34,787 nucleotides of DNA from the UHGV virus genome UHGV-0075096; one strand, 5' to 3'. The position numbers and the translations under genes are program-made. Of this stretch, positions 2,657 to 34,787 are shown piece after piece. Under the pieces are notes generated by a model. That model was not told the origin of the DNA, ran no database searches, and was given only the letters and a program-made list of their open reading frames with translations. Position 1 is the stretch's first letter; each line of letters begins with the position of its first letter. The stretch is from a virus.

Positions 2657-2674
2657 ATATAGCACAGGCTATAT
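2657..2674. promoter_or_regulatory. MntR-box-like palindrome upstream of mntS
   Basis: Perfect inverted repeat ATATAGC-ACAG-GCTATAT, 59-76 bp upstream of the mntS ATG; it resembles MntR operators (CATAGC...GCTATG type). Confidence 0.5.
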
Positions 2675-2765
2675 TATAAAGCATCAACTATCTGCGAAAA
2701 ACAACAACTTACAGTGTTATCAATAAGTTACGTTGGTTAATGTCTGTGAGTATTCGGCAGTATTT

Positions 2766-3806
2766 CTAAGCTGTCGCGACATTTTTGCGACATTTTAGGG
2801 GGTTAAGTCGCACAGCATCTTCAAGGTGGCTTGGGGCGAAGTGGGCATAACGCATTGTCATGGTTATGTCAGCGTGGCCGAGAATTTTTTGCAAAACCAG
2901 AATGTTTCCGCCGTTCATCATAAAGTGGCTGGCAAATGTATGGCGCAGTACATGGGTAAGCTGGCCGGAGGGGAGTTCAATGCCTGCGCGTTCCAGAGCA
3001 GAGCGGAAAGCGTTGTAGCAGGGCTTGGGGAACAGAGCGCCTTTTGTTTCAGGTAATTCGGACAGAAGTTCATCATCAAGGGGAATTGTTCTGTTGCGCT
3101 TCCCTTTGGTTTTGACGAACGTGACTTTACCCCCGGCGATCTGGGAGCTTTTCAGCGTTGCCGCCTCATTCCACCTTGCGCCGGTAGCAAGGCAGATTTT
3201 GACAACTAATTCTAGGTACTTAACTTTGCTTCGTTTGCATTCCAGTAAAAGCCGATCAATTTCTTCGGTAGTGAGGAAAGCCATTTCGGTTTCATCAGTA
3301 CGATACTGTCTGACGTTTTCCAGTGGGTTGGGTGCTGACCATTCACCAATCCGTTTCAGTTCATTGAACATCGCTAGAAAGTAAGCATGTTCAAGGTTCA
3401 TAGTTTTCGGGGAAACCTTAGATACTCTGTTGGTGCGGGCATAATGCCCATCCAGCCTTTTAGCGCGGTAGGCTGTGAACAACTGGGCATTAAATTCTGT
3501 GGCCAGCGGGAATCCCATGCATTCCGCCGCCCAGGTCATAGCATCTTTACGCTTTTCGCCATTGCTCAAAGCTACGCCGTGGCGTTCATACCACATTGTT
3601 ATCAGATCTATTAAAGTTCGCTTGTCCTTCCCTTCACCCAGCCACGGAGCTGCGTCTACTTTCTGAAGCGTATGGTTTTCGAATGCCAGGGCTTCCCCTT
3701 TCGTGGCAAATTTTTTACGTATACGCTTCCCGTTCTTGCCATTACTGCGGTTGACGGTGTAGAAGTCGGCGATCCATTCGCCTGTAGGAAGTTTACGAAC
3801 GCTCAT
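2766..3806 (-). CDS. int: P2/186-type tyrosine integrase
   Basis: 346 aa; N-terminal region similar to P2 Int (GKNGKRIRKKF...), C-terminal catalytic motifs ATGARWNEA, HVLRHTFASH and the Y of MTMRYAHF; lies 2 bp downstream of cI as in 186. Confidence 0.9.
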   Translation of the reverse strand: MSVRKLPTGEWIADFYTVNRSNGKNGKRIRKKFATKGEALAFENHTLQKVDAAPWLGEGKDKRTLIDLITMWYERHGVALSNGEKRKDAMTWAAECMGFPLATEFNAQLFTAYRAKRLDGHYARTNRVSKVSPKTMNLEHAYFLAMFNELKRIGEWSAPNPLENVRQYRTDETEMAFLTTEEIDRLLLECKRSKVKYLELVVKICLATGARWNEAATLKSSQIAGGKVTFVKTKGKRNRTIPLDDELLSELPETKGALFPKPCYNAFRSALERAGIELPSGQLTHVLRHTFASHFMMNGGNILVLQKILGHADITMTMRYAHFAPSHLEDAVRLNPLKCRKNVATA

Positions 3807-6922: not shown

Positions 6923-7772
6923 AACTCCGCTTAAATGGGTGGGCAGCAAAGCCCGCCTCATGCCTAAGCTGCGTCCGCACCTTCCAGAAGGTAAACGCCT
7001 GGTTGAACCGTTCGCAGGTTCCTGCGCCGTCATGATGAATACGGATTATGACGAGTATCTGATCGCAGATGTGAATCCTGACCTGGTTAATCTTTATAAG
7101 GCGATGGCGTATCACACTAATGCGCTGCTGAATGAGCTGGAGATCCTGTTTTCTGCCGGTTCGTTAGGTGATGTAGAAAGCCGTGCCGTTTTCTATTACG
7201 CAGTGCGTGATGCTTTCAATCTTTCTGGTGGTAAGGCCGGTTCTGAATCTGTTGAAAATGCTGCGCGTTTCCTGTACCTGAACCGGCACTGCTTCAATGG
7301 TCTGTGTCGGTATAACCGTCGAGGCCAGTTCAACGTCCCGTTCGGTAAGTACAAAAAGCCTTATTTCCCCGCTGATGAAATCCGCGCCTTTGCTGAAAAA
7401 GCAAAACGCGCAACGTTCATTACTGCCCACTATTCAGAAACGCTTGATTTGGTTCGGGGCGGGAGTGACGTTGTTTACTGTGATCCGCCTTATCTGACTG
7501 ATGCCGACAATTTCACCGCTTACCATGAGCGCGGTTTTTCGCATATGGATCAGGGGCGGCTGGCGCGTAAACTGCGCCGTCTGGCGGAACGTGGGATTCC
7601 CGTTGTCGCGTCAAACAGCGATCTGGAAATGGTGCATTACCTGTATGCAGGGTTTGACGCCGTAAAGGTTAATGCGCCGCGTAGTGTCGGTGCGGCAGCT
7701 GCAAGCCCGAAAACGGCGGCAGAGCTGATTCTTAAATGGCCTTTACCGGCGACTTCTGAGGCCAGCGCATGA
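6912..7772 (+). CDS. dam: DNA adenine (N6) methyltransferase, Dam family
   Basis: AdoMet motif [10 protein letters not shown] and catalytic DPPY (VYCDPPY); strong resemblance to E. coli Dam over the N-terminus (KRLVEPF...NTDY...LIADVNPDL); GGAGG RBS before the ATG at 6912. Confidence 0.88.
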
Positions 7773-9790
7773 CGCTGGCAATAAACGAACAATGCTATGC
7801 CGTTGATGCCTGGAGGCGGGAAACTTTCGCACCAGGCACACCGGCAGACGCGACTATCACAGAACGCCGCCTGTGGGCTGTAAACCCGCAGGATTATGAA
7901 TGGCGATCCCGGTACCTGCATGAGATACCCGACTGGTTAGCCGGGTATTTTGGCCGTCGCTATGAAAAGCTTTTTTCTGGCCGTGACGGGCGTCGCCGTG
8001 CCAATACATTCCTGCGCAAAACAATCGGTGAGAATGTATTGCCACGTCTGCGCAAAGTGGCTGCGCGTTACTCGCTGGCCGCTGATGCTGCTGATCTTCC
8101 TTTTGGTAAGTCGCTGGAGCGCTTGCCGTCACTAGACCGTCCTGATCTTAAAAAACTGGCTGGCCAGGTATCTGGCTGGATTTCCCAGTCACTTTATGAC
8201 TTCACCGAACAGTTTGATTCCGGCACTGACGACGCCAGAGAGCTGCATCGCCGCACTCTGGAATCTTACCGCCATCTTTGTGCCTGTTGCCTGATGCTGA
8301 ATAACCAGCCGCCGTACTGGACTGAACATGAGGCCAATGAAGGTCAACTGGAAATGCGTAAGGCGGAATCCGGGATACTGCGCATGATGGCGCCGGAATG
8401 GTGGTACCTGCGTCTTAAACGTGCGCGTGATACGCAGCGCGAGCACATGGCCATTGCGGTGGGACAGGTGCAAAAAGCGGCCAGCGCTTATGTATCCCGC
8501 AAAACACTGGGTGAATGGATAGACCAGAAAAAGCGGAATCTGGAGTTCTTTAAAAAGTTTGATCTGCTGAATGATGAGGGGCTGCGCATTGCACTGGACA
8601 GCATGGTGCACCGCAGCGTTGCAAATCCGGCGATCCGTCGATGTGAACTAATAGTAAGAATGCGAGGGTTTGAAGATATGGCCAATGAAGAAGGGCTGGC
8701 CGGTGAGTTTTACACTATCACCGCGCCATCACGTTTCCATGCGGTTCACAGCAAAGGGGGCTTTGTATCGCAATGGGATGGAAGTACGCCGCAGGATACC
8801 CAGCGCTATTTATGCGGCGTATGGGCAAAAGCGCGTGCAGCGATCTCGCGTGCTGGTATCCATGTATTTGGGTTTCGGGTTGTTGAGCCTCACCATGACG
8901 GGACACCGCACTGGCATATGTTGCTTTTTATGCGTCCGCAGGACGTGGACACGGTACGCGATATTCTTTGTTATCACGCCAGAATTACCGATTCTGAAGA
9001 ACTGCAATCTGAAAAGGCGCTGAAGGCGCGTTTTCATGTTGAAGCTATCGATCCCGCCAAAGGTTCGGCCACGGGCTACATCGCGAAATACATTTCAAAA
9101 AATATTGATGGTTTTGCGCTGGATGGTGAGCAGGACGAAGAAACCGGCGAAAACCTGCGTGATATGGCTAAGTCCGTTTCCGCGTGGGCTTCACGCTGGC
9201 GTATTCGCCAGTTTCAGCAGATTGGTGGTGCGCCGGTAACCGTCTGGCGTGAGCTGCGTCGGTTGCGGGATCAGGTACTGACAGATCGCAGAATGGATGC
9301 GGTTCTGGCCGCTGCTGATGTCGGGGACTGGGCTGCATATACCCAGGCGCAGGGAGGTGCACTGGTTGCCCGCCGTGATCTGGTTGTTCGTCTGGCCTAT
9401 GAAATTACGGAACAGGGCAACGAATACGCGGAGGACGTGCAGCGCGTACAGGGTGTTTATTCTCCTTTGATTCCTGATTCAGAAGTTTGCACCCGTCTGG
9501 TTAAGTGGCAAAAGGTTGCGAAGTTGGCCGAAGCGCCAGCGGAGGCGGGTTTTTCTGGCGGCAACGCCGCCCCTTGGAGTTCTGTCAATAACTGTACGGA
9601 GGGGGGAACCCGCAGACGGTTAAAACTGGAATTACGCAGTCGGGGTTTTGAGGGTTCCGATGAAGAAATAGCCATTCTCCTGCGGGGTAGTGGTTTGATA
9701 TTTGGTCAGGGGGCACTGATTTACCGCAATGGGCGGTTGAAGGAAACACGAAACGAACCATTGCAGGAGCTTTGGCCGGGGTGGTTATAG
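7769..9790 (+). CDS. replication initiation endonuclease (P2 gpA / 186 A family, rolling-circle)
   Basis: 673 aa carrying the paired-tyrosine active-site motif GYIAKYISKN and the HxH-like PHWHMLLF motif; lies last in the early operon as in P2/186. Confidence 0.85.
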   Translation: MTLAINEQCYAVDAWRRETFAPGTPADATITERRLWAVNPQDYEWRSRYLHEIPDWLAGYFGRRYEKLFSGRDGRRRANTFLRKTIGENVLPRLRKVAARYSLAADAADLPFGKSLERLPSLDRPDLKKLAGQVSGWISQSLYDFTEQFDSGTDDARELHRRTLESYRHLCACCLMLNNQPPYWTEHEANEGQLEMRKAESGILRMMAPEWWYLRLKRARDTQREHMAIAVGQVQKAASAYVSRKTLGEWIDQKKRNLEFFKKFDLLNDEGLRIALDSMVHRSVANPAIRRCELIVRMRGFEDMANEEGLAGEFYTITAPSRFHAVHSKGGFVSQWDGSTPQDTQRYLCGVWAKARAAISRAGIHVFGFRVVEPHHDGTPHWHMLLFMRPQDVDTVRDILCYHARITDSEELQSEKALKARFHVEAIDPAKGSATGYIAKYISKNIDGFALDGEQDEETGENLRDMAKSVSAWASRWRIRQFQQIGGAPVTVWRELRRLRDQVLTDRRMDAVLAAADVGDWAAYTQAQGGALVARRDLVVRLAYEITEQGNEYAEDVQRVQGVYSPLIPDSEVCTRLVKWQKVAKLAEAPAEAGFSGGNAAPWSSVNNCTEGGTRRRLKLELRSRGFEGSDEEIAILLRGSGLIFGQGALIYRNGRLKETRNEPLQELWPGWL

Positions 9791-9867
9791 GTGTGCATGT
9801 GTGTGTAACACATTCATTTGTCAGTAGATGGCAGGAAATTAAATTTCACAATTCGTGCTTTAAGGTG

Positions 9868-9887
9868 TACTGTATGTATATCCAGTT
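9868..9887. promoter_or_regulatory. LexA (SOS) box-like operator
   Basis: TACTGTATGTATATCCAGTT matches the E. coli LexA consensus TACTGTATATATATACAGTA at 17 of 20 positions with the CTG-N10-CAG core intact; a TTCACA -35-like hexamer sits at 9845-9850. Confidence 0.55.
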
Positions 9888-9909
9888 ATTTATTGCTTGT
9901 GGGGGCTAA

Positions 9910-10116
9910 ATGGATCTTTTGGAGGCGTCGGCACAGCTGGAACGCATTGAGTTATTGGCCAAAATTGCCCATGTTTACGAAAGTAACCAGAGAGAAAAAA
10001 CAATCGCTTTGGCCTGGATTGGAGAGCTTGCGGGAGAGGTTCGCGAAATGGTTAAAAAGGAAGGGCAACGCCCCCAGAATGGGGGCATTTCAGGCGGCGG
10101 GAGTCGCTTTCAGTAG
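9910..10116 (+). CDS. small SOS-regulated protein, candidate antirepressor (positional analogue of 186 Tum)
   Basis: 68-aa ORF (MDLLEASAQLERIELLAKIAHVYESNQREK...) 23 bp downstream of the LexA-like box and after gene A, where 186 carries LexA-controlled tum. Function inferred from context only. Confidence 0.4.
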   Translation: MDLLEASAQLERIELLAKIAHVYESNQREKTIALAWIGELAGEVREMVKKEGQRPQNGGISGGGSRFQ

Positions 10117-10359
10117 GTCTAATGCCATCTGGCGCTGATCGGGTGAAAGTGCATTCAGTATTTTTTGCACCATCGCATCACCCGTTTTAGCGCTGGGGCT
10201 GAGAGTGTGGGAGAACGTCAGATTCATAACAAACGTGTGGCCACACTCAACATCTGAACAGGCGCAGTAAATATCCGCAATTTGCCGGTGCTTCCTGTTC
10301 GTTTTACGAATAACAGCCTTTGAGCCGCATTCCGGGCATTCGATTTTCAGAACTCGCAT
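10090..10359 (-). CDS. ogr: Ogr/Delta-family zinc-finger late transcription activator
   Basis: From the internal ATG: MRVLKIECPECGSKAVIRKTNRKHRQIADIYCACSDVEC... has the exact C-x2-C-x22-C-x4-C spacing of P2 Ogr / 186 B. Confidence 0.8.
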   Translation of the reverse strand: MRVLKIECPECGSKAVIRKTNRKHRQIADIYCACSDVECGHTFVMNLTFSHTLSPSAKTGDAMVQKILNALSPDQRQMALDLLKATPAA

Positions 10360-10409
10360 ATTCCATGCTCCAGCTGTTAAATGATGCCTGGATTTTAGCC
10401 TGTTTCGCC

Positions 10410-11471
10410 TCATGCCGCACCCTTATCCGTTGATTCTGTGTAACTTAAATCAAAGTTAAGGTGTAGCCTTTCCGGTATTTCGGGATCATTGTTAACGGCC
10501 AGCATAAAACGGCGCTGGATGGGGGCAATTTCGCTTTTCTTGTAAATGCGTTCAGCCTTTTCAACATCCCCCAGTCCGGCAGTGTTCTGCGGGACAATAC
10601 CGGCGAGGCCAGCAGGGAAACGGTGAGCGTTCAGAATGTCCTGGGCGCTGATGTTCTTGATGTTGGCAAATTCATCCTTTGCGGAAATATCCCCCATTTC
10701 AATGAATTTGATGGCGTCGCCGTCTCCACCGGGAATGTTTACAAGGATGGTGGAGAAGTTACCGATCCCTTTGCTGTCACGCAGCTGCTGTTCAATTTCT
10801 TCCTCCATTTCGTCCGTCATGCTGGGATCGCGGGTATAAAGAATACCGCCTGTGTGCGCACCATTGTGGTAATAGCGGCGTCGGAAAATGACCGCTTCAC
10901 TGTTAAGTAACGCGGAATGCACACCGCCTATGTAGTCCGGCAGCCCGTAGATATGCTGTTGCGGGTCATACATTTTGATGAAGATAATATCTTCTTCTGG
11001 CCATACCTGCGGTTCCCCTTCCTGTAACACCACGTAGTCACCAGGCTTATCCAGGGCGTTATCTCTGACTTTGCGGCGGCGAATATACAGACCGGGCAAG
11101 GGTTCAAGTGCGATCACGTCACCCCAGCCGTTACGAATTTTGGCAATCGCAATATCCCCAAAGGTTATATAGTCAAACGCTGCCGCTTCCAGCTGGTCGT
11201 GAATAAGCCCGCCCCCCTGGTAGTCTGAAACAATCATGTTTTTACGGGCGTGAATGATGCCGCCGTGCTGACCGTTAAGATTAATCAGTTGCGCGAGTGC
11301 CAGCCGGTCAATCGGCTGGGTGAAGTGATCGGCGGCATTGTCGTACCAGATATCACGGTAATCTGTGCCGGTAGTCAGAACTGGTTCAGGTTTGCCGAAT
11401 GTGATAATGCTCATCTTTTTTGATTTGTCGCCGCGCTGGTCGCGCTTAACAAAGCGTTTCTTTTTACTCAT
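10410..11471 (-). CDS. portal protein (P2 gpQ homologue)
   Basis: 353 aa, P2 Q-like size and sequence character; start overlaps the end of the terminase gene (11468-11471). Confidence 0.88.
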   Translation of the reverse strand: MSKKKRFVKRDQRGDKSKKMSIITFGKPEPVLTTGTDYRDIWYDNAADHFTQPIDRLALAQLINLNGQHGGIIHARKNMIVSDYQGGGLIHDQLEAAAFDYITFGDIAIAKIRNGWGDVIALEPLPGLYIRRRKVRDNALDKPGDYVVLQEGEPQVWPEEDIIFIKMYDPQQHIYGLPDYIGGVHSALLNSEAVIFRRRYYHNGAHTGGILYTRDPSMTDEMEEEIEQQLRDSKGIGNFSTILVNIPGGDGDAIKFIEMGDISAKDEFANIKNISAQDILNAHRFPAGLAGIVPQNTAGLGDVEKAERIYKKSEIAPIQRRFMLAVNNDPEIPERLHLNFDLSYTESTDKGAA

Positions 11472-30763: not shown

Positions 30764-31480
30764 TTACTTTAAACTGAGTTTAAAATTTTTGAATTTACCA
30801 TACAGGGTATCGCGTACAGAAAAGGAAGGAACCCAATTGAATCCTGTTCGCCATGGGCGAGGACTACCGTGAAAGCATACAACTGAAACATCATCAGGAA
30901 CTTTGCCAGTAGCATAATCTGATGCCAAGTCAGGGTTGTAACCTATCATTTTACGTGTGGCTATATGGCATTTGTAACTAACAACAGATCCGGGAATTAT
31001 ATCTTGCCACAATACAGGTTTCATGACGCTACCCAGAAACCCCTGATCACCCCATTTATCTTCTGTTTGGCATTCATGCATATTTTTTTCGGGGTCAGTC
31101 CAGAACGCATCCCAAACATATTGTTTGATAGACGCAGGAATGAACATAATGGATGAGTTAACCCTGGAAGGGTGGTTAAACTCCCGCAGCATAGTGAACT
31201 CTTTCGCCGCATCAAAGATTTTGATATCACCAGTTATGACAACATCAACGTCAAAATAAAGCAGATCCTTATCACCTATTACCGGATGGTTTGGATTAAA
31301 AAGCTCAATCTTAGACCACCAACCTGGAAGGTTGTGCATTAACGGTGCGGTTTCAACACCAGGGATACTTCCAGCATCAGTTAAGCAAATTGAAGGTATG
31401 CCTTTAAATTGGCTATGCAGCCATTGTGCGTGTTTGGGGGTAAATTCTTTACCGCATTTAAGGACGGATACAATCAGCAT
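30764..31480 (-). CDS. putative GT-A fold glycosyltransferase (GT8-like motifs)
   Basis: 238 aa; DxD-type motif (LLYFDVDVVITGD) and a C-terminal H-x2-G-x2-(K/R)-P-W motif (FHGSPRPW) characteristic of retaining GT8 enzymes; GC visibly lower than the prophage core. Confidence 0.45.
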   Translation of the reverse strand: MLIVSVLKCGKEFTPKHAQWLHSQFKGIPSICLTDAGSIPGVETAPLMHNLPGWWSKIELFNPNHPVIGDKDLLYFDVDVVITGDIKIFDAAKEFTMLREFNHPSRVNSSIMFIPASIKQYVWDAFWTDPEKNMHECQTEDKWGDQGFLGSVMKPVLWQDIIPGSVVSYKCHIATRKMIGYNPDLASDYATGKVPDDVSVVCFHGSPRPWRTGFNWVPSFSVRDTLYGKFKNFKLSLK

Positions 31481-31660
31481 ATGGGAATCCCATTCTTTAG
31501 AGCAATAGTGTGCATTTTTTGAACATCGGCAATACTAAAATAAATAGTCAGGGCATAATTTTCTTAGGTAAGAGTCATGATGCCTCATGCCATTCCTTAC
31601 GTAAAGCTAGGCAGACTCAGCATAATGAGGGGACAAAAAGGGGACGCTGACCACTACAAA

Positions 31661-31689
31661 CAAAAAAGCCACTCCGTCAGAAGTGGCTT
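31661..31689 (-). terminator. rho-independent terminator (minus strand)
   Basis: On the minus strand, AAGCCACT-N8-AGTGGCTT hairpin followed by TTTTTT. Confidence 0.6.
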
Positions 31690-31843
31690 AATTATATGAT
31701 TATAAAGCTAAAATTTGGTGGCCCCTTGGACTTGAACCAGCGCCCGGGCGATTATAAGTCTTATGGTGTAACCTTTTGATATTTATATATAAATTTTATT
31801 TTTATGTGAATTTTAAGGATCTCTAACCGCTTTATTTTTGGCT

Positions 31844-31874
31844 AAAAAACCCGCAGTTGTAGCAATGATGCGGG
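31844..31874 (-). terminator. rho-independent terminator closing the minus-strand cargo operon
   Basis: On the minus strand, CCCGCA...TGCGGG hairpin followed by TTTTTT (plus-strand A6 at 31844-31849); about 220 bp downstream of the last long ORF. Confidence 0.55.
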
Positions 31875-32093
31875 TTGAGTTAGTCTTTAAAACTGAAATT
31901 GATCAGCCATAGCGTTCATAGGTAGCTGCGTATGCATTAACGTTTTTTAGGTGGTGGGGCTACTTGCTGCGTTTGCTGCGTTTGCCGTGGTGGTTGATAA
32001 CCATTGTTCTGCTGATTTGGCCTACTTGATGGTTGATATCCCTCATTTATAGGTTGCCAGCCATCATATTTAGTATTGTTTGCCGGTTTTTCT

Positions 32094-32744
32094 TCAGCCA
32101 TTTTTTACCTCACTATTGTTGGGAGAATGTAATTTTACCTCAATAAACTCAACACTTTCTATTTCATTAGTCAATATTATTATGCCTAATGTATCAGCTA
32201 GTTCGTGATCGAAATCGCCATTCTCATCAAGCGCCCAATGTTTCTCAAGATAGATTTGTTCGGGTTCTGGACTATTGGATGCAAATGAGTCACTTCCATA
32301 AAAACCACCATATTTTTTACCGTTTTTTAGTGTTACCAATACCCAGCAGCGTTGTCTGGTTGAGAAGAAGTAGTCCCAAGAGCGCCCTATAGGGTGTGGA
32401 AGAATATTTTTGACTTTTTCCCAGTTACGAATTTTTAGCAATGCAACAGGTAATAGTACAGGTATTACAATTAAAACTAAAAAGTAAAAAATGTAATATA
32501 AAATAGGGTGTTTCAAAAAAATGTCATTTGTTTCAATTAGATAAATTGGTATTAAAAGAAATGAAAAATTTATGCAACTATATGAAACAACGTCAATTAA
32601 AACTTTTGATGTATCCAAATCAATTGATGGGTGAAATAGTCTGTAAACTCTCATGCTGATAAATCCGGGCATAATGAACAGTACAAATAAAAACAATTTC
32701 CCCTTCTCTAAAATGTCCATTTTAATTCCTTTTGCATAAATCAA
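32094..32744 (-). CDS. uncharacterised membrane protein (3 predicted TM helices plus a roughly 100-aa soluble C-terminal domain)
   Basis: 216 aa; hydrophobic segments [26 protein letters not shown] and [20 protein letters not shown]; its ATG overlaps the upstream stop in an ATGA coupling; AT-rich codon usage. Confidence 0.6.
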
Positions 32745-33766
32745 TCATCTTTATTCATCAAATCATGGTGATATCCACAAACACCTCCAAAATCTTGTTC
32801 GTCTTGGGAAAGTGTTGTGCCACATATATAACATTCATTATAGTCAACTTCATAACCACACCACCGACATTTTTGCTCAGCTAGAATAAATGTATCATGG
32901 TTACAGTTAAAACATTCTTCATAAGTCGGTTCATCGCCATCAGGAGGCCAATAAAAAAACTCATCTTCAAAAACCTGCATAAGCAAAGGCGTAAATAAAT
33001 TGATATTCCCGCATGCAACGCACAAATACTTAAAATCGCTTTCAAAATCTTCTACTGTCAGACCTTCTTCTAAACTATCTTGTGAGGCTTTTATAAGTTT
33101 AGAACCACATTTATCGCAGCAACATTCGGGTAAAAATTCCATCATGCCTTCTGGAATACCTGCATACTCCCATGTTGACCTACACTCATATAATTTCGAA
33201 TTATAAAAAGTTTTGTGTTCCAGCATTGTACTCCAGGAACTGCCTAAAACATCTTGTGGAATTTTATCAAGTTCATTTGTTATGAAACTTTCAAGAACTG
33301 GAAATAAATCGGCGACAAAACCAGCAAGCTCGCCGAAAGTGTTTTGAGGATGTAAGTGTTCAAGATGATTTCGGCAATCCTGAAGTTTTTCAATGGCTGG
33401 CCAATCAACTTTTATGTTGAATTTATGAAAGCGCTCCTTTATGCCACAAACATCAATAGTCGATTTTTTAAACTTTCCTTCAGGTTTCCATTCTACCCCA
33501 CCTTTCCCATCGGGGTGGGGAAGCATTTTAGACGGTGGGTTATGTATTAGCACATACGCATGCTCAGGCGTGTCAACAGATTTGGCGATTTTATATTTGA
33601 ATAGTAATAATAAACCAGCGTAAAGATTACGTATGGATGAAAGAGTTCGCAATGAGTTATCAGGTTGTTGGGATAACTGGAAATCTTCAATCCCAAGTTG
33701 TATTGAAGCAATTGCGTTGTCATATAACTTATCCGCATCTAAGGTTAGTGAGGTTGTGTTACTCAT
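32741..33766 (-). CDS. uncharacterised protein with C-terminal multi-CxxC zinc-ribbon-like region
   Basis: 341 aa; C-terminal third contains CCCDKC, CVAC, CFNC, CRWC, CYIC and CGYHH; N-terminal domain contains an R-N-x3-H motif (RNHLEH); AAGGA RBS. Confidence 0.6.
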
Positions 33767-33840
33767 TGTTTGCTCTATCCTTAGTAAATAAAGTTGGATT
33801 ACATATTATGAAAAAAAGTTGGTGCATTCAATCAGTCATT

Positions 33841-34737
33841 TTAAAAGTTTTTCCCTGACCGCGCTAATGCTTTTTCTTCGTTAAAGTAACCAAGTATATA
33901 ATCTCTTATCTCTACACCTAATTTTTCACTTAAGTAAGGGATGTGGTATTCTGAAATATAAAATTGAATGTTGCAATTATCTATGAAATCTTCTTCATAA
34001 AGTTCATGTTTTATGACTGGAGTGTAATTATATCTGTTTTGAAAGATAACATATGGAATATTAAAAATGTGTTCTTCTTTATAGGTTTTATTTTTGAATT
34101 TACTTAACAAAATATCTAACCCGTCAGGATTTGAACTTAGTAAATCTTCAACTTCTTTACGATGTTTTTGTTCAAATAAATCAGTTAAGATATTTCTGTA
34201 GATAGGATTGATAGTACAAAGCGTAGTGGTTTTATCTAAACGATGTAATGGTAAAACTATCTCACCATCCAAAAGTCCCAAGAATGCTTTATTGTGTTCA
34301 TCATCGGTAGATCTTTCCAGTTGTATTGTGCAGTCATTATCTTTCAGCTTTAATAATATGGCTTTGGCAAAATGAGAGTAATCATTGAAACTGATTTTCA
34401 ATAGCTGTATTTTTTTAAGATCATTTCTTCGTTTTTCTTCTTCTTTTTTATCTAATGCTAGTTTGTTCTGTCTGACGATAAGTTTTTCTTTAGTAAATCG
34501 AATGAATAAGTCTACTATACCAAATAGTATGGATGATAGTAATGCACCAAGTGAAAAGCCTATAATTGTTATTAATGTAATAGAAAGTTCATTAGGTATT
34601 TTAAATTGGCCTAGTTTGGGTTCTACTAAAACCCAGCAACCGATGATTGAGCCAGCAATAATTAATAATCTTAGAGAAGAACGGAACGAAACTAAGTTAG
34701 TTAGGTGTGATAAAACGGTAGATAACGGGTCAGTCAT
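33841..34737 (-). CDS. uncharacterised membrane protein (2 N-terminal TM helices, Lys/Glu-rich coiled-coil-like linker, soluble C-terminal domain)
   Basis: 298 aa from the ATG at 34737, which has a strong AGGAGA RBS 7 nt upstream; TM segments LLIIAGSIIGCWVLV and ITLITIIGFSLGALLSSILFGIV; about 33% GC. Confidence 0.6.
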   Translation of the reverse strand: MTDPLSTVLSHLTNLVSFRSSLRLLIIAGSIIGCWVLVEPKLGQFKIPNELSITLITIIGFSLGALLSSILFGIVDLFIRFTKEKLIVRQNKLALDKKEEEKRRNDLKKIQLLKISFNDYSHFAKAILLKLKDNDCTIQLERSTDDEHNKAFLGLLDGEIVLPLHRLDKTTTLCTINPIYRNILTDLFEQKHRKEVEDLLSSNPDGLDILLSKFKNKTYKEEHIFNIPYVIFQNRYNYTPVIKHELYEEDFIDNCNIQFYISEYHIPYLSEKLGVEIRDYILGYFNEEKALARSGKNF

Positions 34738-34787
34738 GTAGGTGTCTCCTGACTTTTGGCTACAAATTATCACATTTTAGAGAAAGT

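Follow-up and report, generated by a model that had tools for sequence, protein, structure and literature searches.

The AT-rich row of genes at positions 31937-34787 of the window (the whole stretch of 34,787 nt that was analysed) is probably a stack of independent cargo modules in the att-proximal slot for accessory genes of a P2/HP1-like prophage. It seems rather likely that its four minus-strand genes represent three AT-rich modules which were acquired independently and lie head-to-tail, namely gene 1, gene 2 and the pair of genes 3 and 4. Gene 2 encodes a probable single-gene HEPN abortive-infection RNase. A first-pass annotation of this DNA had seen in genes 1 to 3 an undescribed defence or exclusion system. 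A role in defence or exclusion is indeed plausible, because gene 2 belongs to the phage defence candidate family PDC-S64, relatives of which lie in prophage-end slots or have a Lamassu-like system on one side and AbiH on the other. The family of gene 2 is, however, already catalogued as a PADLOC candidate and thus not undescribed, and the three genes probably do not form one system.

The accessory slot and its surroundings

The element carrying these genes is a P2/HP1-like E. coli prophage inserted between mntS and mntR. The features needed in the following are:

2668-2682, plus strand: attL core GCTATATTATAAAGC (direct repeat D6; unique in the window)
30764-31480, minus strand: glycosyltransferase-like moron, 238 aa (phrog_1962, E=4.2e-81)
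31666-31689, minus strand: second terminator hairpin (-18.5 kcal/mol, z -6.2)
31666-31773, minus strand: degenerate 3' part of tRNA-Ile2(CAT) (about 31716-31773) plus terminator hairpin
31842-31876, minus strand: terminator-like hairpin with U-run (RNA fold -12.9 kcal/mol, z -2.1)
31937-32101, minus strand: gene 4, 54 aa (annotated CDS in Combat13F7)
32094-32720, minus strand: gene 3, 208 aa from ATG 32720 (216 aa if the ORF is extended to TTG 32744)
32741-33766, minus strand: gene 2, 341 aa (stop TGA at 32743-32741)
33841-34737, minus strand: gene 1, 298 aa from ATG (the ORF at 33841-34773 reaches GTG at 34773, 310 aa)

The att core GCTATATTATA(A/T)AGC at 2668-2682 has a second copy just past the window end, the matching attR about 135 nt beyond it. 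In 5,421 empty-site genomes the chromosomal homology restarts exactly at this right copy; homology to empty-site E. coli chromosomes restarts only at position 18422 of locus L001, 183 nt past the start of gene 1. With att repeats at both borders, the block is intra-prophage cargo. Its GC content (0.34 for 31937-34787) is far below that of the prophage core (0.52 for 5000-30247), and genes 1, 2 and 3 exhibit values of 0.30, 0.37 and 0.33, respectively. The earlier description as AT-rich prophage cargo of foreign composition therefore holds.

This applies also for the three co-directional minus-strand ORFs within 32094-34773, which were found at 33841-34773, 32741-33766 and 32094-32744. Of the sizes given for their products, 298 aa (from the ATG) and 341 aa stand, whereas the 216 aa of gene 3 are reached only from the TTG. 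All gene callers place the start of gene 3 at ATG 32720 after AGGA, where the DUF6338 profile begins. The ATGA overlap that had been reported for genes 2 and 3 does not exist: gene 2 ends with TGA, and only the TTG at 32744 would overlap it. Furthermore, the row had been taken as consisting of three genes; the fourth, the start of which overlaps the stop of gene 3 by 8 nt (ATGGCTGA), had been missed.

The spacers between genes 1 to 4 comprise 74, 20 and -8 nt, and a terminator scan between them found none. This short spacing without internal terminators indicates that genes 1-4, and thereby the modules, may be co-transcribed, and their products could still interact. Promoter matches were no commoner than in shuffled sequence, and none was located upstream of gene 1. 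The window end cuts off most of the upstream region of this gene.

Two terminator-like hairpins follow on the minus strand, as the first-pass annotation had stated. The one at 31842-31876, about 60 nt after gene 4 and with a loop too long for the consensus terminator scan, is likely the end of the gene array transcript. The other is part of the scar of a tRNA att site (31666-31773), which separates gene 4 from the glycosyltransferase moron. This scar shares 88% identity with ileY and the adjoining sequence next to a P2-like prophage of strain 675SK2, and in related loci an intact tRNA and the hairpin are located immediately outside the cargo gene. ARAGORN detected no functional tRNA at 31659-31773, the sequence being a degenerate 3' fragment. 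The glycosyltransferase (phrog_1962, category 'moron, auxiliary metabolic gene and host takeover'), which neither the Citrobacter copy of the block nor any other DUF6338 context contains, is a cargo gene separate from the array. A link of this enzyme with genes 3 and 4 in a serotype conversion (gtr-like) function was rejected on the grounds of this absence and of the pseudo-tRNA and the two terminators in between.

Of 5,426 complete E. coli genomes, just one carries the operon. Deposited phage genomes contained neither a DNA match to the block nor a protein match to gene 2, and the sole match to gene 3 among them was the phage-plasmid pJN2-26. The slot itself resembles the hotspots of P2-like prophages in being variable, AT-rich and fixed in position and in accommodating swappable known and candidate defence genes. 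Published hotspots include GpA-portal, integrase-att, integrase-primase, a position downstream of GpL and one within the late genes (Rousset et al. 2022, PMC9122126; bioRxiv 10.64898/2026.02.27.708500). The slot described here differs from these, as it is bounded by the last tail (spike-like) gene and the integrase-distal att in a HP1_ORF34-type sub-lineage.

Gene 2, a PDC-S64 protein with HEPN domain and cysteine clusters

The first-pass annotation had recognised no known family for any of the three proteins. This is wrong for gene 2 as well as for gene 3 (DUF6338, see below). The PADLOC model for PDC-S64 (PDLC05058) matched gene 2 with E=2.5e-47 and 160 bits, nearly end to end (residues 10-314 against profile positions 6-292 of 305). 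PDC-S64 is a single-gene phage defence candidate from a bioinformatic survey (Payne et al., bioRxiv 10.1101/2024.01.29.577857), which lists 145 such PDCs as untested candidates that had been found inside BREX, DISARM, type I RM and Hma systems. Besides fitting the model, gene 2 behaves elsewhere as a mobile gene on its own. Worked out here, beyond that source, were the HEPN fold, the RNxLEH motif and cysteine clusters as invariant features, and the recurrent location at the end of P2/HP1-like prophages. A literature search for PDC-S64 returned nothing functional.

Two parts of the protein carry the assignment:

33356-33373, minus strand: RNHLEH codons, R132-H137 of gene 2 (HEPN R-x4-H signature, read from the sequence)
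32777-33124, minus strand: cysteine-rich C-terminal region of gene 2, residues 215-330 (all cysteines listed below invariant)

Gene 2 has no hydrophobic segments, in agreement with the earlier prediction of a soluble protein, and both the RNHLEH motif and the five CxxC pairs (positions 217, 249, 285, 300 and 312) are present as described. RNHLEH(LH) at 132-137 is the sole R-x4-6-H match in the protein. The reservation that it could have arisen by chance can be dropped: R132, N133, L135, E136 and H137 as well as 12 cysteines do not vary among 37 homologues with identities as low as 50%, so that neither the motif nor the cysteine pairs are chance features. In the predicted structure the N-terminal domain is a four-helix up-down bundle and thus of HEPN fold. 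None of the HEPN-type models in Pfam and NCBIfam matched gene 2 at E<=1, and no sequence relative was detected in the PDB. The cysteines could form three zinc sites (C215/217/220 with C249/252; C285/288 with C300/303; C312/315 with C330), and their region exhibits weak matches to the Pfam double zinc ribbon DZR (E=0.03) and to the profile of the zinc ribbon of ribosomal protein eL37.

A HEPN fold whose catalytic motif is invariant speaks for an RNase. In analogy to HepS, AbiJ, RnlA/LsoA and Csm6, gene 2 may be a HEPN ribonuclease that stays latent until its cysteine-rich C-terminal domain senses a phage product; it would probably be oligomeric, with a composite R-x4-H active site. The activated enzyme would then cut tRNA or mRNA, translation would stop and the infection would be aborted. 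RNase activity, phage trigger and protective phenotype are in this sense predicted properties.

HepS from the Salmonella prophage Gifsy-1 is a single HEPN abortive-infection protein, which acts as tRNA anticodon nuclease and is triggered by a phage tail-tip protein (PMC13043305). However, no sequence similarity to gene 2 was detected, and the HepS chain of 218 residues is too short for the 125-residue C-terminal region with its triple cysteine cluster and the beta-hairpin insert of gene 2. AbiJ is likewise a single-gene abortive-infection protein, and in Enterobacter an AbiJ-like gene stands where gene 2 does here, directly ahead of DUF6338 and gene 4. Its Abi_C domain is presumably classed as HEPN, but gene 2 matches neither AbiJ nor Abi_C models, and the order of domains is reversed, with HEPN at the N-terminus in gene 2 and at the C-terminus in AbiJ. 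A toxin-antitoxin pair of the HEPN-MNT type was considered and rejected: no nucleotidyltransferase (MNT) partner is encoded next to gene 2 here or in any other context, and gene 2 is three times larger and has zinc-ribbon domains.

Relatives of PDC-S64 are encoded without homologues of gene 1 or gene 3 in 19/19 viral contigs and in 5 independent genomic contexts, and their neighbours differ. One of them is located between CTD7-MC3-LmuB_C (Lamassu-like) and AbiH on an integrase island. The family is embedded in or adjoins RM, Lamassu-like and AbiH genes, and other relatives are situated in prophage-end slots.

The membrane proteins and the partner of gene 3

The number of membrane segments predicted earlier was correct for both proteins, with two in gene 1 (residues 20-42 and 49-82) and three in gene 3 (3-29, 39-62 and 67-100). 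Gene 1 is a membrane-tethered winged-helix protein, SieB-like in architecture only, and an independent single-gene cargo module that is decaying in most carriers. In its predicted structure a 2-TM hairpin at the N-terminus leads into a long helical stalk, which is followed by a winged-helix domain, also matched in the structure search, and a C-terminal alpha/beta domain. The top viral Foldseek match was a P22 protein of 195 aa annotated only as 'initial portion of N operon' (E=3.4e-3, probability 0.97 over 190 columns, with a TM-score of only 0.21-0.29). The P22 gene sieB (192 aa) sits in the same region, a location which suggests that the match may be SieB itself. In layout gene 1 resembles SieB of P22 and lambda, with a 2-TM hairpin, a basic helical linker and a small winged-helix-like domain, and it is prophage-encoded cargo; it is, however, 100 aa longer, has an extra C-terminal domain and exhibits no sequence relationship. 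Pfam SieB (PF14163) did not match gene 1 and gave only sub-threshold hits among its relatives (2/26 and 1/38), and hhalign against lambda SieB, P22 SieB or both together yielded probabilities of 0.3-2%. Membership in the SieB family was therefore rejected, leaving the architecture and the one weak Foldseek match. In about 23 of the 24 E. coli contigs read, gene 1 is broken by a frameshift or a premature stop, with gene 2 left intact. These lesions are three different ones, among them Q90stop and frameshifts.

Gene 3 is a DUF6338 family protein (PGAP name). It matched PF19865 with E=3.5e-37 and 128.4 bits, compared to a gathering cutoff of 26.5 bits, and the match spans profile positions 7-202 of 205. 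The membrane segments are followed by a soluble C-terminal domain of about 100 aa with an invariant WD..F motif. The conserved, obligate partner of this gene is not gene 2 but the 54-aa gene 4. The product of gene 4 is small and hydrophilic, contains G(Y/W)QP repeats and ends in a basic tail PPPKKR, the PPPKK of which is invariant in an alignment of 7 homologues. A small ORF with G(Y/W)QP repeats is located directly downstream of the DUF6338 gene in 42/42 viral-contig loci; 30 of them have a strict PPKK-type tail, the remainder variants such as SPPKER, and one contains an in-frame stop. The pair was also found in 7 other contexts. Among 129 proteins encoded beside it in viral contigs 13 are integrases, and others are TIR, SIR2_2, PDC-S25, PDC-S35 and ThsA-like proteins. 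Genes 3 and 4 make up a two-gene moron cassette of temperate phages that is strictly conserved and had not been described before. The pair is absent from PADLOC, and no functional literature on DUF6338 was found.

Gene 3 is probably translationally coupled to gene 4 and could be a membrane-acting exclusion or abortive-infection effector, the cytoplasmic domain of which would bind the proline-rich gene 4 peptide as a regulator. That the pair represents an unrecognised membrane-acting anti-phage or superinfection-exclusion cassette, with the proline-rich tail regulating the cytoplasmic domain and possibly, here and beside the AbiJ-like gene in Enterobacter, with a contribution of the upstream HEPN nuclease, is a tentative suggestion which we consider rather doubtful as a whole. 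Any role of the gene 1 module and of the genes 3-4 module is one that we infer.

One system or stacked modules

The co-occurrence of the gene families was followed in 72 IMG/VR viral-contig loci and about ten independent genomic contexts, a sample leaning towards Enterobacterales. Members of either of the other two families were absent from the same viral contig in all loci of gene 2 (0/19), gene 3 (0/42) and gene 1 (0/11). The joint occurrence which the first-pass annotation had thought worth checking was thus seen in none of the 72 loci, and the families did not co-occur in any of the genomic contexts either. According to tblastn over the fetched loci (INDEPENDENCE), genes 1-4 occur together only in copies of at least 97% identity, which are the E. 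coli mntR prophage and Citrobacter amalonaticus (block 97-100% conserved). A contig scan with a single protein query returned one near-identical Citrobacter locus.

Instead, each family turns up without the others, in prophage-end slots or defence islands, and the occupants of the slot differ between hosts. At tRNA-Ile2/mug, gene 1 is the only occupant in Enterobacter, Pectobacterium and Pantoea dispersa, and gene 2 the only one in Pantoea agglomerans; in Salmonella a 165-aa zinc-ribbon protein and an 85-aa protein accompany DUF6338 and gene 4. At the ybjL site, gene 2 is present alone in Rahnella, and Enterobacter carries an AbiJ-like protein followed by DUF6338 and gene 4. In sister prophages AbiJ-like, PDC-S20/PifA-like and DUF4145 proteins were detected in the slot, too.

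That genes 1-3, together with gene 4, nevertheless constitute one integrated defence or exclusion system, the membrane proteins acting with the HEPN/zinc-ribbon protein, appears very improbable to us. The common direction, the tight spacing and the lack of an internal terminator would fit such a system, and so would the 97-100% conservation of the whole block in E. coli and Citrobacter; a membrane protein combined with a nuclease is moreover a common layout of abortive-infection systems. However, the families are never found together outside near-identical copies, each of them fills the same slot alone in other hosts, gene 1 has acquired three different lesions with gene 2 remaining intact, and PADLOC models gene 2 as a single-gene candidate. 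A coupling restricted to part of the row is still unlikely, albeit less so. DUF6338 and gene 4 would then be a membrane module serving any upstream HEPN nuclease as effector, anchor or antitoxin, and gene 1 would be unrelated. In two unrelated contexts DUF6338 and gene 4 are immediately preceded by the gene of a HEPN-type protein, PDC-S64 here and the AbiJ-like protein in Enterobacter; this could be more than stacking and point to a functional link. Genes 2 and 3 are moreover only 20 nt apart. On the other hand, PDC-S64 relatives lack DUF6338 in 19/19 viral contigs and 5/5 independent genomic contexts, the pair occurs without HEPN neighbour in Salmonella, pJN2-26, an E. coli SIR2/TIR element and Serratia, and the Citrobacter copy combines a frameshifted gene 3 with an intact gene 2.

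Somewhat more weight, though still with a low probability, can be given to the view that the genes do not serve defence and are ordinary morons or addiction modules, i.e. toxin-antitoxin-like stabilisers, envelope or lysogenic-conversion functions or selfish passengers without benefit for the host. The PDCs, like the other families described here, are at the candidate stage; natural isolates carry decayed copies of genes 1 and 3, which suggests weak selection, the adjoining gene is the glycosyltransferase moron, and the operon is as rare among complete E. coli genomes as stated above. For gene 2, however, the HEPN fold and the invariant catalytic motif point to an RNase and no MNT-type antitoxin accompanies it, its family lies in or beside RM, Lamassu-like and AbiH genes, and the AbiJ-like, PDC-S20/PifA-like and DUF4145 proteins of sister prophages share its slot. 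We therefore retain the interpretation as independent modules stacked in an accessory slot, with gene 2 as the probable abortive-infection RNase.

For genome scans this implies some caution, since tight, co-directional rows of uniform composition at prophage ends can be accreted independent modules and not operons encoding one machine. The PADLOC search on the region, proposed along with the first-pass annotation, has identified gene 2 as candidate PDC-S64 and thereby places this candidate in a natural E. coli prophage and thus in a tractable host, with a concrete hypothesis for its function, namely an RNase of the HEPN type that has three zinc clusters besides its RNxLEH site. DUF6338 and the G(Y/W)QP-repeat protein represent a new gene pair, preserved throughout the 42 viral contigs. 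The att-proximal slot, in which gene 1, PDC-S64, AbiJ-like and DUF6338 cassettes are swapped across at least 3 chromosomal sites, is a hotspot position to be mined in HP1_ORF34-type P2-like prophages.

Cargo genes at the integrase-distal end of the prophage

The window corresponds to a locus of the E. coli chromosome and contains a P2-type prophage (integrase, CI, CII, Fil, GpA, portal/terminase, the HP1_ORF34 baseplate protein and a final, spike-like tail gene of 567 aa) which occupies the mntS-mntR interval. In comparison with 5,421 E. coli chromosomes whose site is empty, homology restarts at the right-hand copy of a repeat of 15 nt, GCTATATTATA(A/T)AGC, located 183 nt past the start of gene 1. 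This places the AT-rich gene row truly within the prophage, as cargo at its integrase-distal end.

Features of the att site and the cargo end (window positions unless stated)
2668-2682: att core GCTATATTATA(A/T)AGC, left copy of a direct repeat; right copy beyond the window end, at 18422-18436 of comparison locus L001
28544-30247, plus strand: last structural gene, 567 aa; weak Phage_base_V and Gp5_C repeat matches
30764-31480, minus strand: glycosyltransferase gene, 238 aa, GC 0.42; PHROG 1962, E=4e-81
31666-31773, minus strand: degenerate 3' fragment of tRNA-Ile2 with a strong terminator; 88% identical to ileY and its flank
31937-32101, minus strand: gene 4, 54 aa, with G(Y/W)QP repeats and a PPPKKR end (ORF reading)
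32094-32744, minus strand: gene 3, from TTG; 208 aa from the ATG at 32720 (ORF reading, gene callers)
32741-33766, minus strand: gene 2, 341 aa (ORF reading)
33841-34773, minus strand: gene 1, from GTG; 298 aa from the ATG at 34737 (ORF reading)

Most of what the first-pass annotation had read from this row was confirmed: three co-directional minus-strand ORFs, a low GC content (0.30, 0.37 and 0.33 for genes 1, 2 and 3, compared to 0.52 in the prophage core), two hydrophobic segments in gene 1, three in gene 3 and none in gene 2, and same-strand terminators, for which two terminator-like hairpins were detected (about 31842-31876 and 31666-31689). Gene 2 indeed encodes five CxxC pairs and a single R-x4-H match, RNHLEH (residues 132-137). 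The three genes are not the complete row, however, as the 54-aa gene 4 had been overlooked; its ATG overlaps the stop of gene 3 by 8 nt (ATGGCTGA). Nor is there an ATGA overlap of genes 2 and 3. The TGA of gene 2 lies at 32743-32741, and the gene 3 ATG at 32720, which is preceded by AGGA, is chosen by all gene callers and coincides with the beginning of the DUF6338 profile, leaves a spacer of 20 nt.

The weak Phage_base_V and Gp5_C repeat matches point to the 567-aa protein being a central spike or VgrG-like tail protein. In all related prophages a homologue of the gene for this protein bounds the cargo slot on its inner side. The glycosyltransferase gene, a separate cargo between this tail gene and the pseudo-tRNA, has no Pfam match, and its PHROG belongs to the category 'moron, auxiliary metabolic gene and host takeover'. 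The tRNA-Ile2 fragment exhibits TAT instead of CAT at the anticodon position and a 2-nt deletion, and looks like the scar of an earlier tRNA att site within the cargo region. It is absent from the Citrobacter copy of the block; in other E. coli the counterpart, ileY with its flank, adjoins a classical P2-like prophage.

The att core, which lies between mntS and mntR, is nearly palindromic. Just within both prophage ends (window 2776-2794 and L001 18344-18362) there is another repeat, GCGACA(A/T)(A/T)TTTGCGACATT, which may serve the integrase as an arm-type site. At the position of the classical P2 hotspot (9790-10410), between a GpA-like gene (7769-9790) and the gene for the portal protein (10410-11471), this prophage has only two small ORFs, of 106 and 107 aa. 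Related P2-like elements possess a second variable slot between CI and integrase with other defence candidates, e.g. a KAP NTPase in Rahnella (L029 12969-15235; PADLOC PDC-S20/PifA, E=2e-171) together with a 309-aa partner, and a 299-aa protein in Enterobacter with a weak PDC-S48 match (L014 3733-4632).

Distribution and decay of the gene families

Of 5,426 complete E. coli genomes, just one contained the full block; despite this rarity the gene 2 protein is recorded in hundreds of draft contigs. Combat13F7 shares both ends of the window at 99.3-100% identity and lacks 5632-28698. This stretch of 23 kb, from the replication genes to the baseplate, is deleted in many draft genomes as well. The genes that remain are those for integrase, CI, CII and Fil, joined to a fusion ORF of 579 aa and to an undamaged cargo block. 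Close to the breakpoint lies a repeat of 37 nt (window 22395-22431 versus the junction). The cargo persists beyond loss of the phage.

Genes 1-3 had been proposed to form a single undescribed defence or exclusion system, a claim for which the analysis gave no support. Co-occurrence was examined in about 10 genomic contexts and at IMG/VR loci, where a second family accompanied gene 2 at 0/19, gene 3 at 0/42 and gene 1 at 0/11 loci. A homologue of the 567-aa tail gene was found within 6 kb at 11/19 loci for gene 2 and at 9/11 for gene 1. Genes 1-4 are jointly present only in copies at least 97% identical, and no co-occurrence of the three genes was found in other genomes outside these. Relatives of gene 2 (52-63% identity) occur without genes 1 or 3: beside tRNA-Ile2 and a decayed P2-like prophage in Pantoea agglomerans, in Rahnella at the end of a P2-like remnant on the ybjL side, solitary in Variovorax, and on Zoogloea-type contigs in an integrase island, flanked by a CTD7-MC3-LmuB_C (Lamassu-like) system and AbiH. 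Gene 1 relatives (49-61% identity) are solitary in Enterobacter, Pectobacterium and Pantoea dispersa, just inside tRNA-Ile2 and adjoining the last tail gene.

Gene 1 is intact in the window and in assembly GCA_012364275.2, and such copies are rare. Most E. coli copies, in many assemblies, carry a CAG-to-TAG change at codon 90 (about 34468-34470), and frameshifts in A-runs, which could be sequencing errors or slippage, were detected in CP148541 and, as a different lesion, in Citrobacter amalonaticus. In Citrobacter gene 3 is frameshifted, too. Genes 2 and 4 are intact in all copies compared for decay. This natural decay of genes 1 and 3, with genes 2 and 4 kept, argues for independence of the genes.

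Properties of the encoded proteins

The statement that none of the three proteins belongs to a known family holds for gene 1 and fails for genes 2 and 3. Gene 2 matches PADLOC PDC-S64 over nearly its full length (E=2.5e-47) and is a new, well-placed member of this catalogued candidate family. The PDC systems are 145 untested phage defence candidates, chosen because members are embedded within BREX, DISARM, type I RM or Hma loci (bioRxiv 10.1101/2024.01.29.577857). The 288 homologues of gene 2, all full length (about 340-350 aa), range from Enterobacterales to Betaproteobacteria at 50% identity or more. R132, N133, L135, E136 and H137 are invariant in an alignment of 37 sequences, as are Cys 215, 217, 220, 249, 252, 285, 288, 300, 303, 312, 315 and 330; this invariance marks both the motif and the Cys pairs as products of selection, not of chance. 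The AlphaFold model (pLDDT 85.3) shows a helical bundle at the N-terminus, into which a beta-hairpin is inserted, and short strands in the C-terminal region; no solved structure was found among sequence-level relatives. Fold and motif conservation support the HEPN assignment tentatively suggested before.

Gene 3 belongs to Pfam DUF6338 (128 bits, cutoff 26.5 bits), on which we found no functional literature. Its few invariant residues (PG in TM1, WD..F at the start of the soluble domain, several Gly and Pro) include no catalytic-looking one. Gene 4 has no match in Pfam, NCBIfam, PHROGs or PADLOC, and a small ORF of its type directly follows every DUF6338 gene examined, including 42/42 loci in viral contigs (one copy with an in-frame stop). 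These proteins are hydrophilic, with 2-5 G(Y/W/F/H)(Q/K/T)P repeats and a basic, proline-rich C-terminal tail, which usually reads PPPKK(R/P) but also occurs in forms such as SPPKER. This strict pairing, half of which the first-pass annotation missed, is the most original result of our analysis. The pair is carried at P2/HP1-like prophage ends (three chromosomal sites), by a Klebsiella phage-plasmid, by Mu-like and other prophages, by an E. coli element harbouring genes for SIR2 and TIR, and by a Serratia island that also encodes an ABC ATPase and the S subunit of a type I RM system. Among 129 proteins encoded beside it in viral contigs were 13 integrases as well as TIR, SIR2_2, PDC-S25, PDC-S35 and ThsA-like proteins.

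Gene 1 gave no match in Pfam, NCBIfam, PHROGs or PADLOC, and it belongs to a small family, with 28 close homologues and, at E<=1e-3, 82 cluster representatives. The model (pLDDT 85.5) predicts a TM hairpin running into a helix of about 70 residues, followed by a winged-helix and an alpha/beta domain; the alignment revealed no invariant residues of catalytic look. Among viral structures the best match (E=3.4e-3, 190 columns) was a P22 protein of 195 aa labelled 'initial portion of N operon', from the same P22 region as sieB (192 aa). Profile comparisons with P22 and lambda SieB failed (probability 0.3-2%), and Pfam SieB matched only a few gene 1 relatives, below threshold. The likeness to SieB is therefore one of layout only.

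Interpretation of the cargo region

We consider it fairly probable that the region arose by accretion of cargo cassettes in an att-adjacent hotspot, gene 2 being a HEPN abortive-infection nuclease. Given the joint presence of the families only in near-identical copies, one integrated system is very improbable. Partial coupling of the HEPN protein and DUF6338 is suggested by two different contexts in which a HEPN-type gene precedes DUF6338. Upstream of DUF6338, Enterobacter carries an AbiJ-like gene (PADLOC AbiJ, E=8.5e-16), and Salmonella Infantis and E. coli SC477 carry genes of 165 aa, with an N-terminal zinc ribbon, and 85 aa in front of DUF6338 and gene 4 (L021 5146-5945; L011 9847-10645), both absent from PADLOC. 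The upstream partner is absent from the remaining DUF6338 contexts, genes 1 or 2 were never seen beside gene 3 relatives in the contexts examined, and we regard such coupling as quite unlikely. For gene 2 the data establish family, fold, motif, Cys clusters, single-gene mobility and a context in defence islands and at prophage ends, and we infer RNase activity; that the genes are instead non-defence morons or addiction modules appears unlikely, if less so than coupling.

Under the accretion reading, the closest model for gene 2 is HepS of prophage Gifsy-1, likewise a single HEPN protein, which, once activated by the tail-tip protein of a phage, cuts tRNAs in their anticodon loops (PMC13043305). 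By analogy, gene 2 might form an oligomer with a composite active site, its Zn-ribbon region might act as sensor, and RNase activity would lead to an abortive outcome. Genes 3 and 4 may constitute a membrane effector controlled by its proline-rich partner, and gene 1 a membrane-tethered exclusion protein that would bind nucleic acid or protein and is undergoing loss. The logic of prophage hotspots is already known, and the slot between the last tail gene and the integrase-distal att site is not among the hotspots named in the available portions of those reports (PMC9122126; bioRxiv 10.64898/2026.02.27.708500). The leads provided by the block are specific and readily tested in E. coli.
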